Numbered from the stretch's first letter, positions 4,643 to 46,756 are shown. The stretch is DNA of 64,000 nucleotides from Clostridia bacterium (GCA_017416425.1 JAFQCL010000036.1:10782-74781); one strand, 5' to 3'. Notes: a model not told the origin generated them from the sequence alone. Program-made: numbers and translations.

Positions 4643-4832
4643 GTAATATTACCATTACTTTATTTAAATTCAAGTTTCCTTTCTAATAAATTAGTATTCA
4701 ATTTTATCAAAATTCTACCACCAGATATTTCTTTCTTTGTAAACAAATTTTATCAGGTTTTCCTCAATAAAACAATAATAATTTTGAGCATTTAAGATCA
4801 AACTATTATCGACAAACCACAAGGAGGTCATT

Positions 4833-5111
4833 ATGTCAAAGCAATCAACAACAACTAACAACTTTGACCAGTTCTTCAACCCAACCGGAAGCACGAACTG
4901 GAACACAGAGGCCGGCTGCTCTCAGATCGATTCAAAGGATCTTGGAACAGTTCAGGATGCGCTTTATAATGAGGCGCTTGCCTACAAAAAGTGTTCGCTT
5001 TATGCGGACAGACTAACTGATCCTCAGCTGAAAACTATGGCGGCAAATGCTGCACATCACCATAAGCAGCATTTTGATTCACTGCAGCGCTATCTTGATG
5101 GAACCAAATAA
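4833..5111 (+). CDS. small spore-coat-like protein (CotF-related, tentative)
   Basis: Strong SD AAGGAGG (4821..4827). 92 aa with a His-rich helical C-terminus (AANAAHHHKQHFDSLQRYL). It is paired with a clear CotF-domain gene downstream. Confidence 0.45.
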   Translation: MSKQSTTTNNFDQFFNPTGSTNWNTEAGCSQIDSKDLGTVQDALYNEALAYKKCSLYADRLTDPQLKTMAANAAHHHKQHFDSLQRYLDGTK

Positions 5112-35045: not shown

Positions 35046-35081
35046 GAAAAACGACCGACACACCTTTTGATGTACCGGTCG
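35046..35081 (-). terminator. intrinsic terminator after the Tim44-like gene
   Basis: The minus strand reads CGACCG...CGGTCG (6-bp stem, 18-nt loop) followed by TTTTTC. Confidence 0.55.
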
Positions 35082-35099
35082 ATATTTATTTAAATGTAA

Positions 35100-36011
35100 T
35101 TAACCTCTGCGCTGAGATATGCCTATGATATTAGACAATACCCAATCATGCTCCTCAACTGTGACAACGGTGTCACAATATGGGCACTTTGCGCTACTGT
35201 TGATATTAAGCGGTGCTCCACAGTTTGGACAGTTATGCACTGTCACATCTCCCTCATCTCTCGTGGTATAGCCTGTGGGACGTGTCAGTATCCACTCATA
35301 CTCCATGAAGCACTCGGCAGTCTTATTGCCTCGTATCACTTGTCCTGTTTTATCGTCTATCACATAATCAATTATTCGTGTATTTAAGTAGACGACCAGG
35401 CAATCATCGTCCTCCTGAGTATACCAGCCACGTATCGTACAGGTAAGAACTGTAGGACGCTCGATATAGTTTGTTTGACCGTTTCTAATATATGCTTGAA
35501 CTTGGCGTTCCATTTGAGCATAATACGCATCGCTCATATAAGGCCTTATTGGCGTAATGTCCTTATCCTGCCATGCATTCTGCATTTGTATATAAAGGTT
35601 ACGGAATTTTTCGCTAACATCTCCTATGTTGAAATTAGGATCCTTTTGGACATAGGTCTCAATGGGCTGAAGCTTTTCAGCAGACGTCCTTTGACCACCG
35701 GCCCTTACGGGCTGGCTACTCGCCCCCTTCTTCTTCCTTGAAAATACTAGCACTACTATTATAATAAAAATAATCAAGCCATATACAAAACCGCCACCGC
35801 CATCAGAATCGATTGTTCCGCCACCGTAATAGGAATAGTCACTACCCCAATCGTCACTATCCCAATCGCTACCGCCCCAATCGCTTCCACTTCCGCCTCC
35901 CCAGTCGCTGTCACCGGAAAAATCCCCAAAATCAGCTACAGACTCAACAGGAATAAAAAATGCACACAATAATAGCAAACAGCAGATCATTAGTGCGAAA
36001 TAACGTTTCAT
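35100..36011 (-). CDS. Tim44-like domain membrane protein with C-terminal zinc ribbon
   Basis: AGGAGG lies 9 nt before ATG 36011. Signal/TM segment, then a D/W/G/S low-complexity segment and a second TM. The Tim44-like core is QNAWQDKDITPIRPYMSDAYY. CPNCGAPL...CPYCDT lies at the C-terminus. Confidence 0.6.
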   Translation of the reverse strand: MKRYFALMICCLLLLCAFFIPVESVADFGDFSGDSDWGGGSGSDWGGSDWDSDDWGSDYSYYGGGTIDSDGGGGFVYGLIIFIIIVVLVFSRKKKGASSQPVRAGGQRTSAEKLQPIETYVQKDPNFNIGDVSEKFRNLYIQMQNAWQDKDITPIRPYMSDAYYAQMERQVQAYIRNGQTNYIERPTVLTCTIRGWYTQEDDDCLVVYLNTRIIDYVIDDKTGQVIRGNKTAECFMEYEWILTRPTGYTTRDEGDVTVHNCPNCGAPLNINSSAKCPYCDTVVTVEEHDWVLSNIIGISQRRG

Positions 36012-36138
36012 TTTAAAAGGCCTCCTATAGCTATATATATGCATTTTATCATATGTTTATAATAACTGCAATAGCTACAAATCGACATAAGTTTTAGCAA
36101 AGTTACACTTGAAATGGAAAAGGACAACACGTATGTTG

Positions 36139-36189: not shown

Positions 36190-37038
36190 TTACTTTGTAT
36201 AGGTAAAAAAGCCCCTTCCAGTCTTTCTACCAAGAAGCTTTCCGCGCACCATCTTTCGAAGAAGCGTATGAGCGCGATACTTAGGATCACCGGTTTCCGA
36301 ATATAGCGTGTCCATAATAGCAAGTACAACATCAAGTCCGACCAGATCTCCCAAAGCAAGCGGCCCCATAGGATGATTGCAACCGAGCTTCATGGCGGTA
36401 TCAATATCTTCAGGAGAAGCTATGCCCTCTGATACAATACCTATCGCTTCATTTATCATGGGTATGAGTATCCTGTTTACAACAAAACCAGGGTTTTCCT
36501 GCACTGAAACGGGCTCTTTTTCAATTTCGCGAGAAAGCTCCATAATATAGCTGTAAGTTTCATCTGAGGTATGCACTCCGCGTATCACCTCAACAAGCTT
36601 CATAGCAGTTGGAGGATTAAAGAAATGCATTCCGATAAATTTATCCTGGCGCTTTGTAGATGTAGCTATGTCGGTAATCGATATCGAAGATGTATTTGTG
36701 CAGAATATGGTCTTTTCATCGCAAATAGCATCAAGTTCACCAAAAACCGACTTCTTTACCGAAGAATTTTCAACGATAGCTTCGATGACAACATCCGCAT
36801 GAGCAGCAAGACTAAGATCTGTGGTAAAACTGATATTACCTAAAACTATATTCATGTATTCTGCGCTGATCTTGCCACGCTCAAGACGCTTAATAAGGCT
36901 CTTTGAAAGACGTGCTGAAGCTGCCTCAATTATGGAGTCATTTATATCACGAACGATAACTTTCATCTCATGCGAAGCAAATACATGGGCAATATCAAGA
37001 CCCATCGTGCCTGCACCTATAACAAATATGTGTTTCAT
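36190..37038 (-). CDS. hbd: 3-hydroxybutyryl-CoA dehydrogenase
   Basis: Rossmann motif IGAGTMG. The HFFNPP motif and 282-aa length are typical of Hbd. Confidence 0.85.
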   Translation of the reverse strand: MKHIFVIGAGTMGLDIAHVFASHEMKVIVRDINDSIIEAASARLSKSLIKRLERGKISAEYMNIVLGNISFTTDLSLAAHADVVIEAIVENSSVKKSVFGELDAICDEKTIFCTNTSSISITDIATSTKRQDKFIGMHFFNPPTAMKLVEVIRGVHTSDETYSYIMELSREIEKEPVSVQENPGFVVNRILIPMINEAIGIVSEGIASPEDIDTAMKLGCNHPMGPLALGDLVGLDVVLAIMDTLYSETGDPKYRAHTLLRKMVRGKLLGRKTGRGFFTYTK

Positions 37039-37044
37039 CTATAA

Positions 37045-37818
37045 TTACACTCCCTTAAATTCATCTCTTTTTTCCTTGGTAACAAAGGCTTTCATTGCCA
37101 TCTTCTGATCGTGCGTTGCAAAGCAGCGGCTAAACATATCGGCTTCATAATCAAGATCGCCAATGAGCGCAGCATCGGTAAAACGACGTATAGCCTGTTT
37201 TGCTCCGTAAACCGCAACAGGAGCATTTTGTGCAATAGATTCAGCAAGGTCAAGTGCCCTTTGCATCAGCTCATCCTGCGGATATACCTTGCTTACAAGT
37301 CCTATGTCCAAGGCTTCCGCTGCATTCATCGATTTTCCCGTAAGTATAAGCTCTAAGGCATTCGATATACCAATAACCCTCGGTAATCTCTGCGTGCCGC
37401 CAAACCCGGGCGTTATGCCAAGCGTGACCTCGGGCTGTGCAAACTTCGCTTTTTCGCCTGCGAGTCTGATATCGCAAGCAAGCGCAAGCTCACAGCCACC
37501 ACCAAGAGCGTAACCATTTATAGCTGCAATAAAAGGCTTTTTCATACTTTCTATCATTGAGAATACCGTATGCCCCAAATGGCAAAAGGCTTTTGCTTCT
37601 TCCACGTTAAGCTGCGCCATCTCACCAATGTCTGCTCCGGCAACAAAGCTTTTGCCAGCACCGGTGATTATTGCAACTCGTATATCATTGTCTGTCTTTA
37701 CATTGCAAAGCACCTCCGAGAGGTTATTTAGCATCTCGCGATTGAGTGCGTTCAAAGCTTCCGGCCTATCCATGGTAATTATTGCGACATGCTCTCTTTT
37801 TTCAAGTTGTACGCTCAT
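37045..37818 (-). CDS. crt: short-chain enoyl-CoA hydratase (crotonase)
   Basis: 257 aa. GAGKSFVAGADI and ALGGGCELALACD are crotonase-fold oxyanion motifs. Confidence 0.85.
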   Translation of the reverse strand: MSVQLEKREHVAIITMDRPEALNALNREMLNNLSEVLCNVKTDNDIRVAIITGAGKSFVAGADIGEMAQLNVEEAKAFCHLGHTVFSMIESMKKPFIAAINGYALGGGCELALACDIRLAGEKAKFAQPEVTLGITPGFGGTQRLPRVIGISNALELILTGKSMNAAEALDIGLVSKVYPQDELMQRALDLAESIAQNAPVAVYGAKQAIRRFTDAALIGDLDYEADMFSRCFATHDQKMAMKAFVTKEKRDEFKGV

Positions 37819-37846
37819 TTTGCTTGACTCCTCTTTATTGTATTAT

Positions 37847-38647
37847 TTAGAAGCTTTTCCTATTCATACCTCTGTTCACAAGCTCATTTACGGCAAAGGT
37901 TGCAACGTCCTCGGCATATTTTTGAGGACCAAAGCCCGCATCAAAACCAAGCTCCTTCGCGAGCTCATGGGTGATCCTTGCCCCACCGCATACCACAACG
38001 AAGCGTGAACGAAGCCCTTCCGCCTCTAGCAGCTCTATAAGCTCAGTGAGATTTTGTATATGGACATCCTTTTGCGTTACTGTCTGTGAAACAAGGAGTA
38101 TATCGGCATTAAGCTCTGTAGCTTTTTTAATGAACTCCTCATTTGGAACCTGAGCTCCAAGATTATAGGCTTCGATCATTTCATAGCGCTCAAGCCCATA
38201 ATGACCGGCGAAACCTTTACGGTTCATTATAGCATCAATACCCACAGTATGAGCATCAGTTCCGGTAGACGCACCGACTACCACAAGCTTACGACCGAAG
38301 TGTTCGCGTATAAAATCATCGACCTCATGCATATCCATTACGGATCCTTCAATAGTCTGTACGGTTATATTTTCATAATTGATAGTATGGACACATGAGC
38401 CGTATACCACATAGAATGTAAATTCCTTATCAAGAGGCTGAGCTAAAGCAACATTTGGGTCGGTAAGCCCCATTGCTCGCGCCAATATCCGTGCGGCTTC
38501 TATTCCTTTTTCGTCATTTTTGACAGGAAGAGTAAATGAAACCTGGACCTTGCCATCATTCATCGTATCGCCATATGCCTTGAGCTTTGTGAGGTCAAGG
38601 GTCTTGTCAAAATCCTGTTTATGGGTATTATAAAGTCCTGAACTCAT
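37847..38647 (-). CDS. kamE: lysine 5,6-aminomutase beta subunit (B12-binding)
   Basis: DxHxxG cobalamin-binding motif (GTDAHTVGIDA) in a Rossmann-like C-terminal domain. There is a 1-nt TAATG overlap with kamD. Confidence 0.85.
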   Translation of the reverse strand: MSSGLYNTHKQDFDKTLDLTKLKAYGDTMNDGKVQVSFTLPVKNDEKGIEAARILARAMGLTDPNVALAQPLDKEFTFYVVYGSCVHTINYENITVQTIEGSVMDMHEVDDFIREHFGRKLVVVGASTGTDAHTVGIDAIMNRKGFAGHYGLERYEMIEAYNLGAQVPNEEFIKKATELNADILLVSQTVTQKDVHIQNLTELIELLEAEGLRSRFVVVCGGARITHELAKELGFDAGFGPQKYAEDVATFAVNELVNRGMNRKSF

Positions 38648-40203
38648 TAGTTTATACCTCCGCTCATAAGCTCAACAAATGGATTAAAGTAGTTTTCTTC
38701 CTTTGAAACTACGCCATCAAGACCTTTTCCAGCGTCACGCATACGTTTGATATCCGCAAATATGCCCTTTTCAAGGGTAGCAAATAATCCCATTTGTTCA
38801 ATTTCCTCAAGAAGCACCATGGCCTTTGTAAGCACCTGGTCAGCACGCTTCTCCATAATACCACCATCCTTAAATGTTATCTCATTGCCAAGATCAGCCA
38901 TGGTGCGGAAAATGTATTGCGCATTTTCAATGGCAAGCGCCCTATCCGACATAAACGGAGTATGAATGGCTTCTGTCAGCATACCGAGGAGATGTATTTT
39001 TTGCCCCGTAAGTATAGTGACCATATTAAACAGAGCATCCTGAACGTGACCGCGGAATATATTGCCCGTCATAAATTTGGTGGGTGGCATATATTTGAGC
39101 GGTGCATTAGGGAATATCTCTCTTGCCATCTGAGCTTGTGCTAACTCATAGAGGAAGCCATTTTCCAAATCTGGGGTTATTTCAAAAGCGTGTCCCAATC
39201 CCTGCTGTTTTTCAGGCAAACCTGCGCAAAGCGCAAATTGCTCATTTAAAAACTGAGATGCCAAAACGGTATGCGCTTCTTCGACAGCATCAGCTGTGGT
39301 CAAATAGTTATCCTCACCCGTATTTATTATAACGCCGGCATAGGAATTGATGACCCTTGAAAAATACTGGTCAACAAGAGTTCTTTGCATGTTTATATCA
39401 CGGAAGAGAATGCCATAAAGCGCATCATTAAGCATAACATCAAGACGCTCCAGCGCACCCATAGCAGCTATTTCGGGCATACAAAGACCTGAACAATAAT
39501 TACAAAGCCTTATATAGCGTTTTTCCTCTATTCCAACCTCGTCCAAAGCCGCTCGCATAAGACGGAAATTTTCCTGAGTTGCATAGGTTCCACCGAAGCC
39601 CTCGGTAGTTGCGCCATAGGGTACATAATCAAGCAGGCTTTGACCCGTGGTACGAATAACAGCTATAACATCCGCGCCTTGCTTTGCTGCCGCTTTAGCC
39701 TGGGTTATATCCTCATATATGTTTCCGGTAGCCACTATTACATAAAGATAAGGACCTTCCTTGTCACCGTATTCACGAAGAAATTCATTGCGCTTTGCAA
39801 CATTTCCCTTTATCCGTTCTGTAAAAGCTTTGGCCACGGGCATTATAGCCTTGCGTATATCATTGATATGATTTGATTCGATCGTCGCAAGATCGATCGC
39901 GCCATTATTGATTGCCTCCGCCACACCCTGTGGCGAAAGCCCGGTGGATATCATTGCGTTACCGATGCAGTATGCAGCGCCAAGACTCAGAATATCTCGC
40001 TCCATCATATGGTCTACTACCACATTTGGAAGCGGAACTTCTGACTCATTTACTCCGTCAATGCCAAGGAGTCTGCAAACAGCACGTTCAACTGTAACGG
40101 TTGTATGTAGATCGATGAAGGCTTGCGTGTCAAGCGCAATGCGTCTGGCAGATGCCCTTGCGCGCTCAACCTTTGAAAAATCAAGATGCAGTTTGCTTTC
40201 CAT
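38647..40203 (-). CDS. kamD: lysine 5,6-aminomutase alpha subunit
   Basis: 518 aa large subunit directly upstream of the B12-binding subunit and downstream of kamA. Its length and context match KamD. Confidence 0.8.
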   Translation of the reverse strand: MESKLHLDFSKVERARASARRIALDTQAFIDLHTTVTVERAVCRLLGIDGVNESEVPLPNVVVDHMMERDILSLGAAYCIGNAMISTGLSPQGVAEAINNGAIDLATIESNHINDIRKAIMPVAKAFTERIKGNVAKRNEFLREYGDKEGPYLYVIVATGNIYEDITQAKAAAKQGADVIAVIRTTGQSLLDYVPYGATTEGFGGTYATQENFRLMRAALDEVGIEEKRYIRLCNYCSGLCMPEIAAMGALERLDVMLNDALYGILFRDINMQRTLVDQYFSRVINSYAGVIINTGEDNYLTTADAVEEAHTVLASQFLNEQFALCAGLPEKQQGLGHAFEITPDLENGFLYELAQAQMAREIFPNAPLKYMPPTKFMTGNIFRGHVQDALFNMVTILTGQKIHLLGMLTEAIHTPFMSDRALAIENAQYIFRTMADLGNEITFKDGGIMEKRADQVLTKAMVLLEEIEQMGLFATLEKGIFADIKRMRDAGKGLDGVVSKEENYFNPFVELMSGGIN

Positions 40204-40219
40204 ACACTCACCCTATTCC

Positions 40220-41473
40220 TTAATTATGACGACCGCGCTCAGTACGTTTTAAGCCCTTAGGCTCCATTGAAAGCATCTGTCCCTGCTCAAGCGCAGATAC
40301 ACCTATCGTGTTTGCTTCCCTCTCACCACGGCATACTTCGCAGTTACATGTCTCTTCATAGTGAGTAGGCTCGGTATATGTAGTTATAACGCCTTCAAAA
40401 TTGCGCAGTATCACCCGTTTTGGGGTTTGGCTTATTACATATTGAGGCATGACAGGGGTCTTTCCTCCGCCGCCAGGTGCATCAACAACAAATGTGGGCA
40501 CCGCATAGCCGGATGTATGACCTCTTAAGCCCTCTATTATTTCGATACCCTTTGAAACCGGGGTACGGAAATGTTCAAGACCCATAGAAAGATCGCATTG
40601 ATAGATATAGTATGGGCGAACACGCATTTTAACAAGTTCGTGTACGAGTTTTTTCATAACATGTACGCAGTCGTTTACTCCCGCAAGAAGCACGCTCTGA
40701 TTCCCAAGGGGTATACCGGCGTCTGCAAGCATCGCACAAGCCTTTGCTGCTTCATCGGTTATTTCATCTGGGTGATTAAAATGCGTATTAAGCCATATTG
40801 GATGATACTTTTTAAGCATGTTGCAAAGCTCCGGTGTGATCCTTTGCGGCATCACAACGGGGGTACGAGAACCGATACGGATTATTTCAACATGCGGTAT
40901 CGCGCGAAGACTGCTTATTATGTATTCAAGAGTTGCGTCGTTTTGCATGAGCGCATCACCGCCCGAAAGTAAAACATCGCGAACTTCGGGATGTTTTCTT
41001 ACGTATTCAATGCAGCCATCGATCTGCTTTCTTGGCACCGCACCATCATTTTGTCCTGCAAAGCGTCTTCTTGTGCAGTGGCGGCAATACATGGAGCACT
41101 GGTCGGTTATAAGTAAAAGCACCCTATCCGGATACCTGTGAGTAAGTCCGGGTACGGGAGAGTCTGTATCCTCATGAAGCGGATCGAGAAGATCGGCCTC
41201 AGCACGATGAAGCTCCGCAGCAGTCGGGATAGCCTGCTTACGCACCGGATCATGCAGATCGCTGGGATCGATAAGCGATAGATAATATGGAGTAATAGCC
41301 ATACGGAGCGTTCCCAGACATTTTTTGACACCATCTTCCTCTTCGGGAGTAAGCTTTATGTATTTTTTTAGGTCTTCAAGGGTCTCTATACGGTGAGTAA
41401 CCTGCCAGCGCCAGTCATTCCACTGCTCATTCGGTACATCCGCAAAAAGACCGTACATTCTACTCGATTTCAT
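40220..41473 (-). CDS. kamA: L-lysine 2,3-aminomutase (radical SAM, PLP)
   Basis: CxxxCxxC cluster CSMYCRHCTRR. It also has LLSGGDAL and the C-terminal Zn-site CNCEVC. AAAGGAGG precedes ATG 41473; the longer track start lacks an SD. Confidence 0.9.
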   Translation of the reverse strand: MKSSRMYGLFADVPNEQWNDWRWQVTHRIETLEDLKKYIKLTPEEEDGVKKCLGTLRMAITPYYLSLIDPSDLHDPVRKQAIPTAAELHRAEADLLDPLHEDTDSPVPGLTHRYPDRVLLLITDQCSMYCRHCTRRRFAGQNDGAVPRKQIDGCIEYVRKHPEVRDVLLSGGDALMQNDATLEYIISSLRAIPHVEIIRIGSRTPVVMPQRITPELCNMLKKYHPIWLNTHFNHPDEITDEAAKACAMLADAGIPLGNQSVLLAGVNDCVHVMKKLVHELVKMRVRPYYIYQCDLSMGLEHFRTPVSKGIEIIEGLRGHTSGYAVPTFVVDAPGGGGKTPVMPQYVISQTPKRVILRNFEGVITTYTEPTHYEETCNCEVCRGEREANTIGVSALEQGQMLSMEPKGLKRTERGRHN

Positions 41474-41538
41474 GTGATCCTCCTTTAAACAGAACAGGGA
41501 TGGTGCTATTTTTGCAGCCATCCCCAGAATTTTATTGA

Positions 41539-42579
41539 TTAAACATATTTCTCGTCAAAAAGCTTACGAAGCTTTTCATTTTCACGAAGTACGTTAAGGG
41601 TTATATCTGCATGCTCCTTAGTGTAGCCGTTTCCAACGATCATCGTTACATCCTTACCGATACCCTCTGCACCAAGCGCAGCCTTTGTAAAGCTGGTAGC
41701 CATGGAGAAGAAGTATACGATACCATCATCACGAACGGGAAGGATCGCGCTCATCTCGCAGGACTCGACATTTACACAGCTTATAGAGATATCATATTCC
41801 TTGCCATCATTAGCGGCAAGAGCAGCTTCAAGAACAGCAATAGGCTCTGTTGCGCTTGCAACTACGACTTTATTATATACACCAAGTTCCATGAGAGCGT
41901 CTACCTGCTTGGGATTTCTGACAACGCCTACTACATTTCCCTTGGGACCAACCTTCTTCATGGCTTCATAGCCGCAAAGAACGCCGCTCTTTCCGTTTGC
42001 ACCAAGAATAAGCACACTGTCACCTTCCTTGGGGAGCTTTCTTGCCTGAGCAGGTGCGCCTGCAACATCAAGAGCCGCGAGTGCAAGAGGTTCGCTCATA
42101 TCATCCGGGAGCTTTGCATAAATGCCGCTCTCAAAGAGCACAGCCTGACCGATGATGTCAACACGGTCGATATCCTTATGGATAGCAAGGATCTTCTCTA
42201 TCTTAAGAGGAGTAAGTGAAAGTGATACAAGGGAAGCGATCTTATCGCCAACCTTAAGATCACGATGCGCAAGATCTTCACCGATATAAGCAACTGTGCC
42301 AATAAACATGCCGCCGGAACCAGTTACGGGATTCTGCTGCTTGCCGCGCTCAGCTACAATACCCATTATCATTTCGCCTATCTTCTGCTCATCACCGCCG
42401 CAGGCTTCCTCTATCTGGGTGAATGAAGCTGAATCAATGTTGAGCGACTGTACATCACAGATGATCTCATTGGAATAACGCTTGGTCATATCGTTATCGA
42501 TCCTATAAGCAGCCTGAGTCAAAACGCCCTGGGGCTCAAGAACCCTATGTGTACCATACTTGTTTCCCTTAATTGCCAT
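41539..42579 (-). CDS. kdd: 3,5-diaminohexanoate dehydrogenase
   Basis: About 346 aa from ATG 42579 (GGAGG 8 nt upstream). N-terminus: GNKYGTHRVLEPQGVL. It has a Rossmann-like GANGKSG segment and sits in the kam cluster. Confidence 0.75.
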   Translation of the reverse strand: MAIKGNKYGTHRVLEPQGVLTQAAYRIDNDMTKRYSNEIICDVQSLNIDSASFTQIEEACGGDEQKIGEMIMGIVAERGKQQNPVTGSGGMFIGTVAYIGEDLAHRDLKVGDKIASLVSLSLTPLKIEKILAIHKDIDRVDIIGQAVLFESGIYAKLPDDMSEPLALAALDVAGAPAQARKLPKEGDSVLILGANGKSGVLCGYEAMKKVGPKGNVVGVVRNPKQVDALMELGVYNKVVVASATEPIAVLEAALAANDGKEYDISISCVNVESCEMSAILPVRDDGIVYFFSMATSFTKAALGAEGIGKDVTMIVGNGYTKEHADITLNVLRENEKLRKLFDEKYV

Positions 42580-42636
42580 AAAATTTACCTCCAATAAATT
42601 ATTCTTTTTCTTTCGCTTAAATGAGCTGTATCAAAC

Positions 42637-43464
42637 TTAGTTTCTCGGTTTTAAACCCAGTATTTTCCTTGCCTCATCGGGAGTTGCCACAGGTCTGCCA
42701 AACTCTTTCGCGAGCCTTACTACCTTTTCAACGAGCTCAGCATTGCTCTTTGCCGGTACGCCCTTTTCAAGATATACATTATCTTCAAAGCCAACGCGCA
42801 CATGACCGCCCATGATTATTGCCATAACAGTCATTGGGAACTCAAACCTCCCAACGCCGGCAACGGTCCAAGTCGAGCCTTCCGGTATGCTTTCCGCCAT
42901 AAATATAAGGTCTCTGGGTTCACCTGAAATACCGCCATTTACGCCCATAACAAAGTCAAAGTGCATCGGGGTCTTTATGTGACCCTTCTTCGCAAGGCGC
43001 TTTGCCATATCGATCATGCCCTTATCAAACACTTCTACCTCGGGCTTTATATCAAGAGCGTTCATCTTCGTAACAAAATCAATTATCATGTTCTCGGTGT
43101 TAACAAAGATATCGTCTCCGCCAAAATTACAAGTACCGCAGTCAAGCGTTGCCATTTCCGGACGAAGAGTTATAGGCTGAAGCCTTTCATCATTGGTCAT
43201 ACCAACAGCGCCGCCGGTGGAGGGCTGTATTATGACATCAGGGCAAAGCTCATATATAGCTTTCATACATTCCTCAAAGCGGTCTCGTGACTGAGTGGGA
43301 GTGCCATCGTCCTCACGAACGTGCAGATGAATTATTGAGGCGCCTGCTTTATAAGCGCCATAAGCCTGCTCGGCTATTTCCTGAACCGTATAAGGAACTG
43401 CGGGATTATGCTCCTTTGTTACCTCTGCACCACATATACATGCTGTAATAATAAGCTTTTCCAT
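42637..43464 (-). CDS. kce: 3-keto-5-aminohexanoate cleavage enzyme (BKACE family)
   Basis: 275 aa. LIITACICGAEVTKEHNPAVP and IIHLHVRED fit the TIM-barrel BKACE pattern. Confidence 0.8.
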   Translation of the reverse strand: MEKLIITACICGAEVTKEHNPAVPYTVQEIAEQAYGAYKAGASIIHLHVREDDGTPTQSRDRFEECMKAIYELCPDVIIQPSTGGAVGMTNDERLQPITLRPEMATLDCGTCNFGGDDIFVNTENMIIDFVTKMNALDIKPEVEVFDKGMIDMAKRLAKKGHIKTPMHFDFVMGVNGGISGEPRDLIFMAESIPEGSTWTVAGVGRFEFPMTVMAIIMGGHVRVGFEDNVYLEKGVPAKSNAELVEKVVRLAKEFGRPVATPDEARKILGLKPRN

Positions 43465-43476
43465 AATGTCCTCCTT

Positions 43477-43866
43477 TTATTTTGCGCTTTTACGCTGCTT
43501 ATCAAGCGGAACCACACAAGTTCCGCTTGCTCTTGCTACTACTATAGGTTCAGGAAGAACATCACATGCCGAATCATTTATATCCGGGCGAGGCGCTATT
43601 ACCTTTCTTGCCTCAAATACCATTTTACGAGATGTACGACCACAGCTTACTATTTCACCTATCGCTTCAATGTAATCTCCGGCATAAACAGGCGCGATAA
43701 ACTCGATCATGTCATATGCCTTAAAAAGTCCTTCATCACCATCGTTCATAATAAGCAATTCGGTAGCGACATCACCAAAGAGTTGAAGCATACGAGCCCC
43801 ATCTACAAGGTTCCCGCCATAATGCGCATCGTGCGCACTCATACGCAGCCTGATCACAGATTTCAT
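43477..43866 (-). CDS. kal: 3-aminobutyryl-CoA ammonia-lyase (hot-dog fold)
   Basis: 129 aa, first gene after the riboswitch, with SD AAGGAGG. The size and position match Kal of lysine-fermentation clusters. Confidence 0.7.
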
Positions 43867-43954
43867 TGTTTAGCCTCCTTGTGGTAGAAAATTTAAAAAA
43901 GCGCCAAAAATCAGCTTTTTAACCGATTGATAGCGCATCATCCCGTGTATAATA

Positions 43955-44004
43955 AACAAAAAACTATTGAAGCGCATTAAAATACATAATATGCGTTTCA
44001 ATAG
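43955..44004 (-). terminator. riboswitch-controlled intrinsic terminator
   Basis: The minus strand reads CUAUUGAAACGCAU - 13-nt loop - AUGCGCUUCAAUAG (13 bp, one A.C mismatch) followed by UUUUUUGUU. Confidence 0.75.
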
Positions 44005-44166
44005 CTCTCCGCCCTCTCAGGACGACAGTCACAACGCGCTAAGCGTTGCGCCCAAATATGGAGTGTGGGTAACACCAATCATATTTTCGGCGATAGCACA
44101 TTCACGCAAAGCACATTACCCCATGTATAACTCAACGCTACCTTACACATCGCTCCTCTATACAAC
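43995..44166 (-). promoter_or_regulatory. lysine riboswitch (L-box) aptamer
   Basis: The minus strand reads GUUGUAUAGAGGAGCGAUG...GGGG...GCUAUCGCCGAAA...UUGGGCGCAACGC...GUGACUGUCGUCCUGAGAGGGCGGAGAGCUAUUGAAAC. This reproduces the conserved L-box blocks (AGAGG-GCG, CGCCGAA, ACUGUC, GGAGAG) in the right order and spacing. Compared from memory with the B. subtilis lysC and T. maritima aptamers. Confidence 0.8.
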
Positions 44167-44177
44167 ATCTTGTTATT

Positions 44178-44207
44178 ATAATACCAAAAGCAAGTAGTTT
44201 TTGTCAA
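44178..44207 (-). promoter_or_regulatory. sigma-A-type promoter of the riboswitch/lysine operon
   Basis: TTGACA (44207..44202, overlapping the TGA stop of the upstream gene), then an 18-nt spacer ending in TGG, then TATTAT (44183..44178). Confidence 0.55.
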
Positions 44208-45655
44208 TAATGTTTTTTTATATAATTCATAAGCAATGGGTTAGTTCCTAAAAGCTCACATATTGAAAGTGCATCGTGAGGTACGATAGACGAATCCTCC
44301 ACAAGATAGACCCCGTAGCTCATAGCCTCTTCAATTATGCTTATGCGGCTCTTATTTGAATTATCAATGCGTTTTTTTAGCCCGTACATATCAGTATCAC
44401 AAAGTCCTTTCACCCTATATTGCCTATCGGCAAACGGAGCCACTCCATCATAATGTGTCGCAAAAAGGCTTATGCAGCGCATATCGCATACATATTCTAC
44501 AGCACCCTTTACGATAGCAGCGCCCTCATCCGGATTGGTACCCCTTGCCAGCTCATCTACAAGCATAAGCGAAAACCCGGATGCTTCAATACCGGAAATA
44601 GCATCGTTTAACTGGGTTATCTCGCTGCCAAAGCTGGATAGCCCCTTGTTATAGTCCCCGGTCGCTCCGGACACCATATAGATATTATCAAAAAGCGGCA
44701 TCTCGCAGCTATTTGCAAATGGAAAAATACCTGCCTGAATACATAGTGCATTAAGTGCAATCGTGTACAGCACAATGCTTTTTCCTCCCATATTCGCCCC
44801 TGTAAGTACGCTTGCACCCATTTCAAGCTCAATGGAAAGAGGTGTAAAGTTACCGCCACTGCGCGACTTTATTGCATATGCAACAGCCGGGTTAAACATA
44901 TTGGTTAACACCAATCTTTTATCAGTGATATGGGGCATAGGACATCCGTATTTTACGGCAAGCGCAGCCTTAGCCATGGAAAAATCAAGTTTTGCTATTG
45001 ATCCTACGGTCGATAGCATCTCCTGAGCGTATGGTCTAAGTTCCATACATAGATTTCGTTTTAAGGCCGTCTCCTCAGCGTCCTCCATGGCTACAAATTC
45101 AGCACGCTTTAGTAGGAGCGACTCTCGCCTCTTTGCATCAGTACATGAATTGATTTGAAGCTCAATCAGGCGCTTCTGCTCACGCGCATAGCTAAGCTTT
45201 TCCGAAAGCGCACCCGAAAGCATGAATGCAGGATTGCGCTTTTTCTCCGGATCTAAAATATCAAGCGCTGCGGAAATGCGGTTGATAGTTATACCACTAA
45301 GCTCAAGCTTAGCATTTAAAGTATCAAAAAGGGGCGCGATCGTGTCAAGCTGCAATAAAAAACGCTTTATTTCAAAAAGTTCTATTTCATTAAGGGTAAG
45401 AGAATCTATGGAAACTATAGATCTCCTTATATCTTTAAGGCTCATGAGCATGTGGGAAATCTTTTTATATTCAGGAAGCTCCTGCGCTTTGCAAAGCTTA
45501 TTTATATTTTCCAACTCCTCAAGGAGCAGCCCTCTTTCCTCTGGTTTAAAAAAGCGCAGCTTACGTTTTAGCTCAGCGCCATATGGCGAGCAGGTCTCTA
45601 TCTCGTTTTTTACAAATGTAAATCCGATCTCATCCATGTATTTTTCATCTATCAT
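44204..45655 (-). CDS. truncated MutS paralogue (ATPase domain V only; no mismatch-binding or Smr domain)
   Basis: Walker A GANMGGKS, Walker B LMLVDELARGTNPDEG, then FATHY. About 483 aa from ATG 45655 (AAGAGG upstream). It has no GDFYE-type N-terminal domain. Confidence 0.8.
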   Translation of the reverse strand: MIDEKYMDEIGFTFVKNEIETCSPYGAELKRKLRFFKPEERGLLLEELENINKLCKAQELPEYKKISHMLMSLKDIRRSIVSIDSLTLNEIELFEIKRFLLQLDTIAPLFDTLNAKLELSGITINRISAALDILDPEKKRNPAFMLSGALSEKLSYAREQKRLIELQINSCTDAKRRESLLLKRAEFVAMEDAEETALKRNLCMELRPYAQEMLSTVGSIAKLDFSMAKAALAVKYGCPMPHITDKRLVLTNMFNPAVAYAIKSRSGGNFTPLSIELEMGASVLTGANMGGKSIVLYTIALNALCIQAGIFPFANSCEMPLFDNIYMVSGATGDYNKGLSSFGSEITQLNDAISGIEASGFSLMLVDELARGTNPDEGAAIVKGAVEYVCDMRCISLFATHYDGVAPFADRQYRVKGLCDTDMYGLKKRIDNSNKSRISIIEEAMSYGVYLVEDSSIVPHDALSICELLGTNPLLMNYIKKHY

Positions 45656-45687
45656 GATATTACCTCTTAATTTTATTGGATCAAATG

Positions 45688-46674
45688 TCACGAGCCCGCT
45701 AAAACGTCAAACACGGGCACATGAACAGCATTACTCATTCGTGATAGAAGTTCTGAAGCAGAAAGACTCATTCCATATGCATTAAAAGGATTTACCGCAA
45801 CACCGATAAGGTTGATTGTCCTAAGTACGGTAAGCTGCATTCCTTTTTTCTTAATCTTATCCGCCGTACCGCTGCTTATAAGAAACTTGCTGGCATCCTC
45901 CGCGCACAGTTCCATGCCGTTAAGCTTTATTCCGCTCATAAGAAGCGGCTTCAGCATTGCATCAGTCACGGCTCCTTTTAAAAATACAGCAGCTACGTTA
46001 GAATTCTTTCTTAATACATCGCATAAAGCTGTTTCTCTTTGGATAATGATGCAGTCATCTTTTGTGTAAAGCGCCATATGCTTATCAAAGCCATGTTTAA
46101 ATCGTTCCGATCTATTAAGCAGTAAAAGCTCACATATATGTGCCGTATCGGTAATGAGCGTATTTATATCAGGTGAATAGGACGCCCCGGCGCATAATAT
46201 CGTAGCCTCAGATACTAACGGGGCAGATAAGGAACGCCTGCTGATAGCTCCGTCTATGAAGACTTTATTCGCGCCTTCTTTTTTCAAGATTTCATTGAGC
46301 AAGATTAGCTGTCCCGTCATAGAAGGGCCCCCGATACGAACATAGCCATCGCTTACCGCACGTATCACAGCTACCTCACCCATGGGCGTAAGCATGCCTG
46401 TAGTAGCTAATATTTCCTTGGTGATATCGCAAAATTTGACCAGATTCGCAGCCGTTGCAATAATAGTATTAGCACGAACATATATCTCCGGCTTTTTTGT
46501 TGAGGTAACTATATCGATAGTCTCTCCGTCCATTCCAATAGAGGTTACCCCAAGTGTTGTATTCGTATCAAAAAGCGACAGCATTTTATTTAAAACGGTA
46601 GTCTTACCGGCATTTTTACACATCCCGATTATGGATATCGCATCATAAGGTTCTATATGAGCTCTCGTCAGCAC
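45688..46674 (-). CDS. uncharacterised P-loop NTPase
   Basis: N-terminal P-loop IIGMCKNAGKTTVLNKM; the rest is unrecognised. GTG 46674 is preceded by GGAGG at 6 nt. The track start at 46692 is TTG without an SD. Confidence 0.6.
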   Translation of the reverse strand: MLTRAHIEPYDAISIIGMCKNAGKTTVLNKMLSLFDTNTTLGVTSIGMDGETIDIVTSTKKPEIYVRANTIIATAANLVKFCDITKEILATTGMLTPMGEVAVIRAVSDGYVRIGGPSMTGQLILLNEILKKEGANKVFIDGAISRRSLSAPLVSEATILCAGASYSPDINTLITDTAHICELLLLNRSERFKHGFDKHMALYTKDDCIIIQRETALCDVLRKNSNVAAVFLKGAVTDAMLKPLLMSGIKLNGMELCAEDASKFLISSGTADKIKKKGMQLTVLRTINLIGVAVNPFNAYGMSLSASELLSRMSNAVHVPVFDVLAGS

Positions 46675-46756
46675 CCTGTACCTCCAATACAATAAAAAAT
46701 ATCACCTTCATATTGTGTGGACAGTCTGAATAACTTTTAATGAAAGGAGATGCCTC

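Follow-up and report, generated by a model that had tools for sequence, protein, structure and literature searches.

A lysine riboswitch with predicted ON logic and a second terminator-like hairpin upstream of a clostridial lysine-fermentation operon

We analysed a 64,000-nucleotide stretch of DNA (hereafter the window) from an uncultured lineage of gut Clostridia (Clostridia bacterium, GCA_017416425.1 JAFQCL010000036.1:10782-74781). Its minus strand carries a lysine riboswitch (L-box) upstream of the lysine-fermentation operon kal-kce-kdd-kamA-kamD-kamE-crt-hbd. Most probably, this leader works as a transcriptional riboswitch with ON logic, in which lysine relieves termination at a terminator, T1, that shares a strand with the aptamer. 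The leader contains an aptamer of the lysine family, its closing helix P1 excludes the complete form of T1, the operon has the gene content of lysine fermentation, and the same wiring is conserved across relatives. From the sequence we infer both the direction of the response, i.e. more read-through in the presence of lysine, and the transcription start. A second terminator-like hairpin, T2, lies between T1 and kal.

An earlier reading of the window, made without database searches (the sequence-only reading), had recognized L-box blocks in their canonical order, and these are present on the minus strand. The conserved blocks AGAGGNGC, GCCGAA, CUGUC and GGAGNGCUA occur in order and are invariant in a 12-sequence alignment. 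The Rfam covariance model of the lysine riboswitch (RF00168) gave a significant match over model positions 1-182 of 182 (44168..43994), with a score of 51 bits against a gathering score of 30 and an E-value of 1.8e-12. This match was obtained in a search of 601 nucleotides (nt) covering the region 43800..44400, using laxer filters and the same Rfam library. A default Rfam scan of the entire 64-kb window at gathering thresholds reported no family, because its speed filters had dropped the RF00168 match and not because the riboswitch was absent; a routine scan would wrongly have counted as a refutation. Speed filters can conceal true riboswitches in long inputs. Matches of the Rfam families RsaF, SpF19 and manA-II in the leader were discarded, as they scored far under their gathering scores and reflect the terminator hairpins. 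The model alignment, the unconstrained minimum-energy fold of the 175 nt and the fold with P1 enforced agree on five helices (P1-P5) around one junction. Lysine is the predicted ligand of the aptamer.

The 3' strand of P1 (CUAUUGAAAC) is at the same time the 5' arm of T1, and hence a shared switching sequence (Table 1). P1 consists of AUAG (44161..44158) paired with CUAU (44004..44001), an internal loop, and GUU (44166..44164) paired with AAC (43997..43995). The sequence-only reading had drawn this helix by eye, and the unconstrained minimum-energy fold of the 175-nt aptamer reproduced it. The 13-base-pair (bp) terminator followed by U6 that had been proposed to use the P1 3' strand is likewise present, with 13 pairs and one A.C mismatch. 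Its energy is -12.5 kcal/mol (z = -3.8), and 1 of 200 shuffles was as stable. A simple terminator scanner omitted T1, as the loop measures 13 nt and the scanner accepts loops of up to 8.

The nucleotides C44004 to U44001 pair either with G44158 to A44161, in P1, or with 43967..43964, at the base of T1. When P1 was enforced in ViennaRNA, the aptamer adopted its canonical fold and the lower four to five pairs of T1, which stand beside the U-tract, were lost. What remained was an upper T1 hairpin of 9 bp, separated from the U-tract by 4 nt (AUAG). The stem of an intrinsic terminator must abut its U-tract. Because the P1-enforced fold moves the T1 stem off the U-tract, P1 and a working T1 are mutually exclusive. 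Hence, the mutual exclusion that had been claimed withstood the folding check, in the sense that a complete T1 is impossible with P1 enforced and only its upper 9 bp persist. No antiterminator element was found between P1 and T1 in the leader.

The eight gene names assigned to the operon by the sequence-only reading each pass an NCBIfam equivalog or subfamily cut-off. The genes required for the 3,5-diaminohexanoate (lysine fermentation) pathway, i.e. kamA, kamDE, kdd, kce and kal, are all present, with matches to NF052388, NF052387, NF052381, TIGR03820, NF052384 and NF052385 above cut-offs. The operon thus encodes the complete fermentation route from lysine to crotonyl-CoA, which makes sense of an induction by lysine.

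Conservation of the wiring was studied in 80 kal loci from contigs of a one-genome-per-species collection and 80 kal loci from metagenomes, in which L-boxes were detected with an nhmmer profile built from 12 aligned kal-linked L-boxes. In 74 of 161 loci, an L-box precedes kal at a distance of less than 500 nt; these loci belong to Clostridia, Peptostreptococcaceae and Fusobacteria. On the sampled relatives the Rfam model scored 57-92 bits, and it did not match two Bacteroidetes controls. A hairpin of -10 kcal/mol or lower with the P1 3' strand as its 5' arm was found in 55 of the 60 non-redundant kal L-box leaders. In 30 of these 55 a U-tract directly follows the hairpin; the remaining 25, mostly from Clostridium sensu stricto, have the real terminator further down. 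RNAalifold on 12 sequences revealed that 18 of the 33 predicted pairs in P1, P2 and P5 had changed on both sides, while the MAFFT/RNAalifold consensus failed to recover P3 and P4.

Closer relatives of the window point in the same direction. Nine independent metagenome contigs carry an identical Kal protein and an identical leader. Locus L161, with a Kal that is 96% identical, has a leader that has diverged by about 7% and still scores 57 bits against RF00168; the differences are located in loops, in the promoter spacer and in P4, where they are paired, and leave the stems of T1 and T2 untouched. Locus L173 has the same kamC-leader-kal layout, and T1 is kept there by compensatory changes (U-A to C-G and G-C to A-U).

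The sigma-A-type promoter described by the sequence-only reading (TTGACA, an 18-nt spacer ending in TGG, and TATTAT) is present on the minus strand. It agrees with the consensus at 11 of 12 positions, and a TG precedes the -10 hexamer (extended -10). The promoter sequence TTATTGACA is kept in the diverged leaders L161 and L173, with a -10-like hexamer at suitable spacing downstream, and the -35 hexamer TTGACA itself is also kept in both. Upstream of the leader are kamB and kamC, lysine 5,6-aminomutase reactivase genes that match NCBIfam NF052386 and NF052383 above cut-offs. The stop codon of kamC (TGA, 44206..44204) falls within the -35 hexamer of this promoter. Since no terminator was found between kamC and the L-box (44204..44700), the leader should also receive read-through transcripts from kamBC. 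Given this read-through, T1 and T2 would double as terminators of kamBC.

Table 1. Features of the riboswitch leader, the operon and the upstream genes (positions in the window)
Feature	Position	Strand	Details
kamB	46692..45688	minus	lysine 5,6-aminomutase reactivase gene upstream of leader
kamC	45691..44204	minus	lysine 5,6-aminomutase reactivase gene upstream of leader
Sigma-A-type promoter	44178..44207	minus	-35 TTGACA 44207..44202; 18-nt spacer ending TGG; -10 TATTAT 44183..44178
Lysine riboswitch (L-box) aptamer, helices P1 to P5	43994..44168	minus	RF00168 match
P1 5' strand, GUUGUAUAG	44158..44166	minus	model alignment and minimum-energy fold
P1 3' strand, CUAUUGAAAC	43995..44004	minus	also T1 5' arm (shared switching sequence)
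Terminator T1	43954..44004	minus	5' arm 44004..43991 (CUAUUGAAACGCAU), 13-nt loop 43990..43978, 3' arm 43977..43964 (AUGCGCUUCAAUAG); tail U6 43963..43958, then G, then UUU
15-mer GGAUGAUGCGCUAUC	43929..43943	minus	diverged copy of aptamer 3' end; its 3' part is the T2 5' arm
T2, second terminator-like hairpin	43895..43936	minus	stem-loop 43936..43901, U6 43900..43895
kal ribosome-binding site and start codon	43864..43880	minus	AAGGAGG 43880..43874; ATG 43866..43864
Lysine-fermentation operon kal-kce-kdd-kamA-kamD-kamE-crt-hbd	36190..43866	minus	
kal	43866..43477	minus	NCBIfam equivalog above cut-off
kce	43464..42637	minus	NCBIfam equivalog above cut-off
kdd	42594..41539	minus	NCBIfam equivalog above cut-off
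kamA	41521..40220	minus	NCBIfam equivalog above cut-off
kamD	40203..38647	minus	NCBIfam equivalog above cut-off
kamE	38647..37847	minus	NCBIfam equivalog above cut-off
crt	37818..37045	minus	strong family-level match (NCBIfam)
hbd	37038..36190	minus	strong family-level match (NCBIfam)

In the mechanism that we propose, transcription would start near 44171 or enter from kamBC upstream. The five-helix aptamer would fold first, and its last strand would then have two possible partners. Without lysine, this strand would pair with 43977..43964, so that the complete T1 would form at U6 and transcription would stop before kal. Binding of lysine in the junction would keep P1 (44166..44158 with 44004..43995) closed, and the base of T1 could not form. 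The residual upper hairpin would then stand 4 nt off the U-tract, and the polymerase would continue into kal-kce-kdd-kamA-kamDE-crt-hbd. T2 would also have to be passed before kal is reached.

T2 is located 22 nt downstream of the T1 tract, between T1 and kal, and has the sequence GCGCUA-UC-AAUCGGUU-AAAA-AGCUGAUU-UU-UGGCGC (43936..43901). Its energy is -17.7 kcal/mol (z = -5.4), and none of 200 shuffles was as stable. With its G+C-rich base, T2 looks like a better terminator than T1. In L161 the T2 stem is unchanged and only the loop differs, and T2 occurs at the same place with an unrelated upper stem in L173, L002, L086 and L006. A block of 14 nt, GGAUGRUGCGCUAU, lies 5' of and extends into T2; it is invariant across six diverged leaders, with one R position, although only part of it is within the T2 stem.

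Several other roles for this region were considered and rejected. The 15-mer GGAUGAUGCGCUAUC is not a motif used elsewhere, as it is restricted to kal leaders, with no further occurrence in the window or the other loci. T2 does not serve as terminator of a plus-strand gene, because no gene converges on it. A 23-codon open reading frame (ORF), MMRYQSVKKLIFGAFLNFLPQGG, which starts from AUGAUG at 43939..43934 and spans 43870..43939 on the minus strand, is probably not a leader peptide: its Shine-Dalgarno spacing is unusable, the frame with its two Lys codons in the T2 loop is broken by a 1-nt insertion in L161, and its start AUG is inherited from the CAUGGAG 3' end of the aptamer. Judged by eye, the T1 U-tract could pair with the A-rich loop of T2 in the window and L161, but not in L173 or L002.

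Several points weigh against lysine-dependent relief of T1 in this leader. Its P1 is weak: the two outer pairs (U.U and G.G) are non-standard according to the covariance model, so that the helix amounts to four standard pairs with an extension of two to three. The P1 duplex is worth -3.8 kcal/mol compared to -17.0 kcal/mol for T1, and any effect of lysine must therefore be kinetic, i.e. the outcome of a race. Moreover, T2 forms in every predicted state, and relief of T1 alone may thus not give expression. The literature that we searched contained no bench test of a natural L-box of the ON type, only engineered lysine-ON switches. The ON switch put forward by the sequence-only reading is hence supported in its aptamer, in the exclusion between P1 and T1 and in its conserved wiring, but was incomplete, as it overlooked T2 and P1 proved weak.

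How the two hairpins divide the work can be read in more than one way. A plausible, though tentative, explanation is a leader with two gates, in which T1 is relieved by lysine and T2 acts as an independent gate, so that lysine is necessary but not sufficient. T2 might then be constitutive and partly efficient, capping expression and insulating kal from kamBC read-through, or it might be controlled by a factor that recognises GGAUGRUGCGCUAU. In agreement with independence, T2 appears in all constrained and unconstrained folds of the window, with or without P1, and forbidding its base costs 8.1 kcal/mol when segment 1, the strand shared by P1 and T1, is held. Its high stability relative to shuffled sequences (the z-score given above) and the invariance of the 14-nt motif in positions outside the stem also favour such a gate. 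However, no regulator gene was found near the locus, where the neighbours are kamB, kamC, spoIIP and pepT, and it would be wasteful to place a strong constitutive terminator ahead of a catabolic operon. Furthermore, related leaders carry a copy of the aptamer 3' end at this very place, which points to coupling of T2 with the aptamer.

This copy was found as the T2 5' arm in 21 of the 60 non-redundant leaders, and corresponds to the P5 3' strand, J5/1 and the P1 3' strand. A copy was counted if at least 11 of 15 positions matched and the shuffle fraction was 0.06 or lower. Identity to the leader's own aptamer 3' end is 15/15 in L026 and L050, 14/15 in L009, 13/15 in L015, L017, L051 and L101, and 12/15 in L002 and L086, compared to 8/15 (ungapped) in the window. 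Leaders with the duplicated platform also include L011, L111 and L124. The L-box invariants UG.AG.GCUAU are kept in the copies, even at bases that lie outside the T2 stem. The significance of the copies and their retained invariants therefore indicate that, judged by these sequence comparisons, the expression platform is duplicated in about a third of the kal leaders, and that part of the duplicate is under selection.

Such a duplication raises the possibility that one aptamer controls both terminators; for the window we consider this doubtful, as the evidence is good for the family and weak for the window with its diverged copy. Control could be exerted by two routes. In a relay, segment 2 (the T1 3' arm) is by construction the complement of segment 3 (the copy), which suggests that lysine-bound P1 (0:1) would hold segment 1, and that the freed segment 2 would pair with the T2 5' arm (2:3) and block T2, so that neither terminator would form. 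Without lysine, T1 (1:2) and T2 (3:4) would both form. In a second-chance route, the copy would close the same aptamer body once more on transcripts that had passed T1 without lysine.

Folding of transcripts cut just before segment 4 emerges gave a divided picture of the relay. The 2:3 helix was obtained for L015, L026 and L050, but only if segment 1 was held, and its energy was 1.8-3.3 kcal/mol higher than that of the T2 state. For the window, L002, L006 and L009, folding did not predict this helix, and the gap amounts to 8-13 kcal/mol. At equilibrium, T2 prevails in all nine leaders tested. We rejected the relay for the window itself: the 2:3 duplex is worth -10.3 kcal/mol against -18.3 kcal/mol for 3:4, and T2 forms even with segment 1 held, with an energy gap of 8.1 kcal/mol.

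In favour of control by one aptamer, the spacing of the copy in the window, CGGGAUG|AUGCG|CUAUC, equals that of the authentic AGGGCG|GAGAG|CUAUU, and the copy can pair with the P5 5' strand. The best upstream partner of the copy is the P4 3' strand/P5 5' strand (-19.1 kcal/mol), a pairing that is the top match in four of six leaders and among the top three in all six. However, the copy of the window has a U where J5/1 of L-boxes nearly always has an A. The window leader gave a single RF00168/nhmmer match, i.e. one complete aptamer and not the two of a tandem riboswitch; the spacer between T1 and T2 is too short for an aptamer and holds only the 15-nt copy of the 3' end.

It is very improbable that the L-box is decaying or non-functional, or binds a ligand other than L-lysine, with the hairpins acting simply as kamBC terminators. 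The weak P1, a score of 51 bits that is the lowest relative to the relatives tested, and the missing terminator between kamC and the L-box would fit this reading. Yet the score is well over the gathering threshold, the core blocks are intact and a conserved promoter directly precedes the aptamer. In addition, the leader is identical in the nine metagenome contigs, L161 shows paired changes in P4 with unchanged stems, and the same arrangement occurs in 74 loci. An OFF switch or translational control of kal can practically be dismissed: all L-boxes characterised so far are OFF switches, but here no antiterminator is interposed and the T1 5' arm is itself the P1 3' strand, the kal ribosome-binding site is not sequestered by the aptamer in any fold, and repression of a lysine-degrading operon by lysine would be physiologically senseless.

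Several side observations concern the operon and the leaders of other lineages. Downstream of hbd, within 35052..36044, a 314-amino-acid ORF gave a weak Tim44/TimA-like match of 26.6 bits against a cut-off of 80, and a strong 13-bp terminator (35081..35052) lies beyond it. As this ORF stands between hbd and the terminator, the operon may include an uncharacterised ninth gene.

Among the Bacteroidales loci fetched, the profile search of the 161 loci found no L-box upstream of kal, and kal loci of Bacteroidales and related Bacteroidota (L028-L044, L049, L052, L056, L058 and others) had none either. Within the loci fetched, predicted riboswitch control is confined to Bacillota and Fusobacteriota. 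The closest Kal in the genome collection (91% identical) belongs to L001, a metagenome-assembled genome of Clostridia from goat rectum. Its L-box (4733..4907) has a low nhmmer score of 43.6 bits, and ends in GGAGCGCAUUUUUUG without the usual CUAUU strand of P1; this switch may be degenerate or differently closed.

One lineage carries two complete lysine riboswitches in its operon, the first ahead of kal and the second between kal and kce (L003 3711..3888, L171 1025..1201, and L081, L083, L084, L085, L091, L101, L106 and L113). In the second riboswitch of L003, the terminator 5' arm overlaps the P1 3' strand, which amounts to ON wiring. In the Fusobacterium leaders (L022, L062, L075), the P1 3' strand takes part in no hairpin. 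Instead, CCUCUAUUUUUU further downstream shows complementarity to the P1 5' strand and J1/2 (AAUAGAGG), and the expression platform of Fusobacterium appears to differ from the clostridial one. In leaders of Clostridium sensu stricto (L007, L010, L012, L013, L016, L020, L045, L046, L008, L014), P1 is about 10 bp long, and no U-tract accompanies the hairpin built on the P1 3' strand. These leaders have another conserved terminator further downstream, GCAYUGAAAAUUCARUGC with a U-run behind it, whose 5' arm is similar to the upper portion of the first hairpin's 5' arm. This suggests ON logic by a four-segment chain.

A natural ON version of the lysine riboswitch would show the same five-helix aptamer wired in the opposite way and closed by a very short P1. 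It would also offer a lysine-inducible part for direct use; selection was needed to obtain the engineered lysine-ON switches. The element stands before an operon for conversion of lysine to butyrate and acetate in gut Clostridia, and probably sets when these bacteria consume lysine. If one aptamer does drive two terminators, the OFF state would be squared without a second aptamer, a hitherto undescribed means of tightening riboswitch control. The duplicated platform that this would involve occurs in about a third of the kal leaders.

The ON wiring is not new: it goes back to a prediction of 2003 that was taken up again in 2007 and 2017, and the window is one more example. Barrick and Breaker (2007, PMC2258182) wrote that certain lysine riboswitches 'with ON genetic logic' 'bury pieces of terminator stems', and described the same layout for glycine, adenine and lysine switches of the ON type. 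As cited in their paper, the lysine ON mechanism goes back to Rodionov et al. (2003). According to Mukherjee and Sengupta (2017, PMC5584792), lysine riboswitches upstream of kal/kce are positive regulators in C. sticklandii, F. nucleatum and Thermoanaerobacter. The sequence-only reading had mentioned hints from comparative genomics at L-boxes upstream of kamA-type operons, in agreement with the 2007 and 2017 papers, and had stated that an activating L-box mechanism had hardly been examined at the bench, in line with the literature searched.

The window shares its aptamer class, kal as the first gene, the proposed activation by lysine and a terminator stem partly buried in P1 with the predicted kal/kce switches of Clostridium (Acetoanaerobium) sticklandii, Fusobacterium nucleatum and Thermoanaerobacter tengcongensis/wiegelii. 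It differs from them in its origin, an uncultured gut lineage whose closest Kal in the genome collection is that of L001, in its longer operon (kal to hbd, with kamBC upstream), in its weak P1 and in the second hairpin. From the fetched Fusobacterium leaders it also differs in having a hairpin that overlaps P1.

To our knowledge, bench work on lysine riboswitches (B. subtilis lysC, E. coli lysC, T. maritima) has so far dealt with OFF switches only. The window has the same aptamer architecture and conserved core as B. subtilis lysC, T. maritima asd and E. coli lysC. Those riboswitches turn off biosynthesis or transport, by an antiterminator and terminator or through translation and RNase E, whereas in the window the terminator takes the P1 3' strand as its own 5' arm, and the logic is thereby reversed. 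In the pbuE (ydhL) adenine and gcvT glycine riboswitches, P1 and a terminator likewise compete directly for a strand that both need, with ON logic and kinetic control, but these have other aptamer classes and ligands and a single terminator.

We found no description of two terminators behind one aptamer in the literature searched, and the duplicated platform is possibly a new part, with its support mainly in the relatives. The chain of exclusive helices, i.e. T1/T2 and the relay in L015, L026 and L050, resembles the 1:2/2:3/3:4 scheme of trp-type attenuators but has no leader peptide. Two serial decision points likewise occur in tandem glycine aptamers, in the tandem thiamine pyrophosphate (TPP) riboswitch of B. 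anthracis and in the S-adenosylmethionine (SAM) plus adenosylcobalamin (AdoCbl) riboswitches on metE. Unlike these tandem arrangements, the window combines one complete aptamer with two expression platforms, the second of which begins with a 15-nt copy of the aptamer 3' end.

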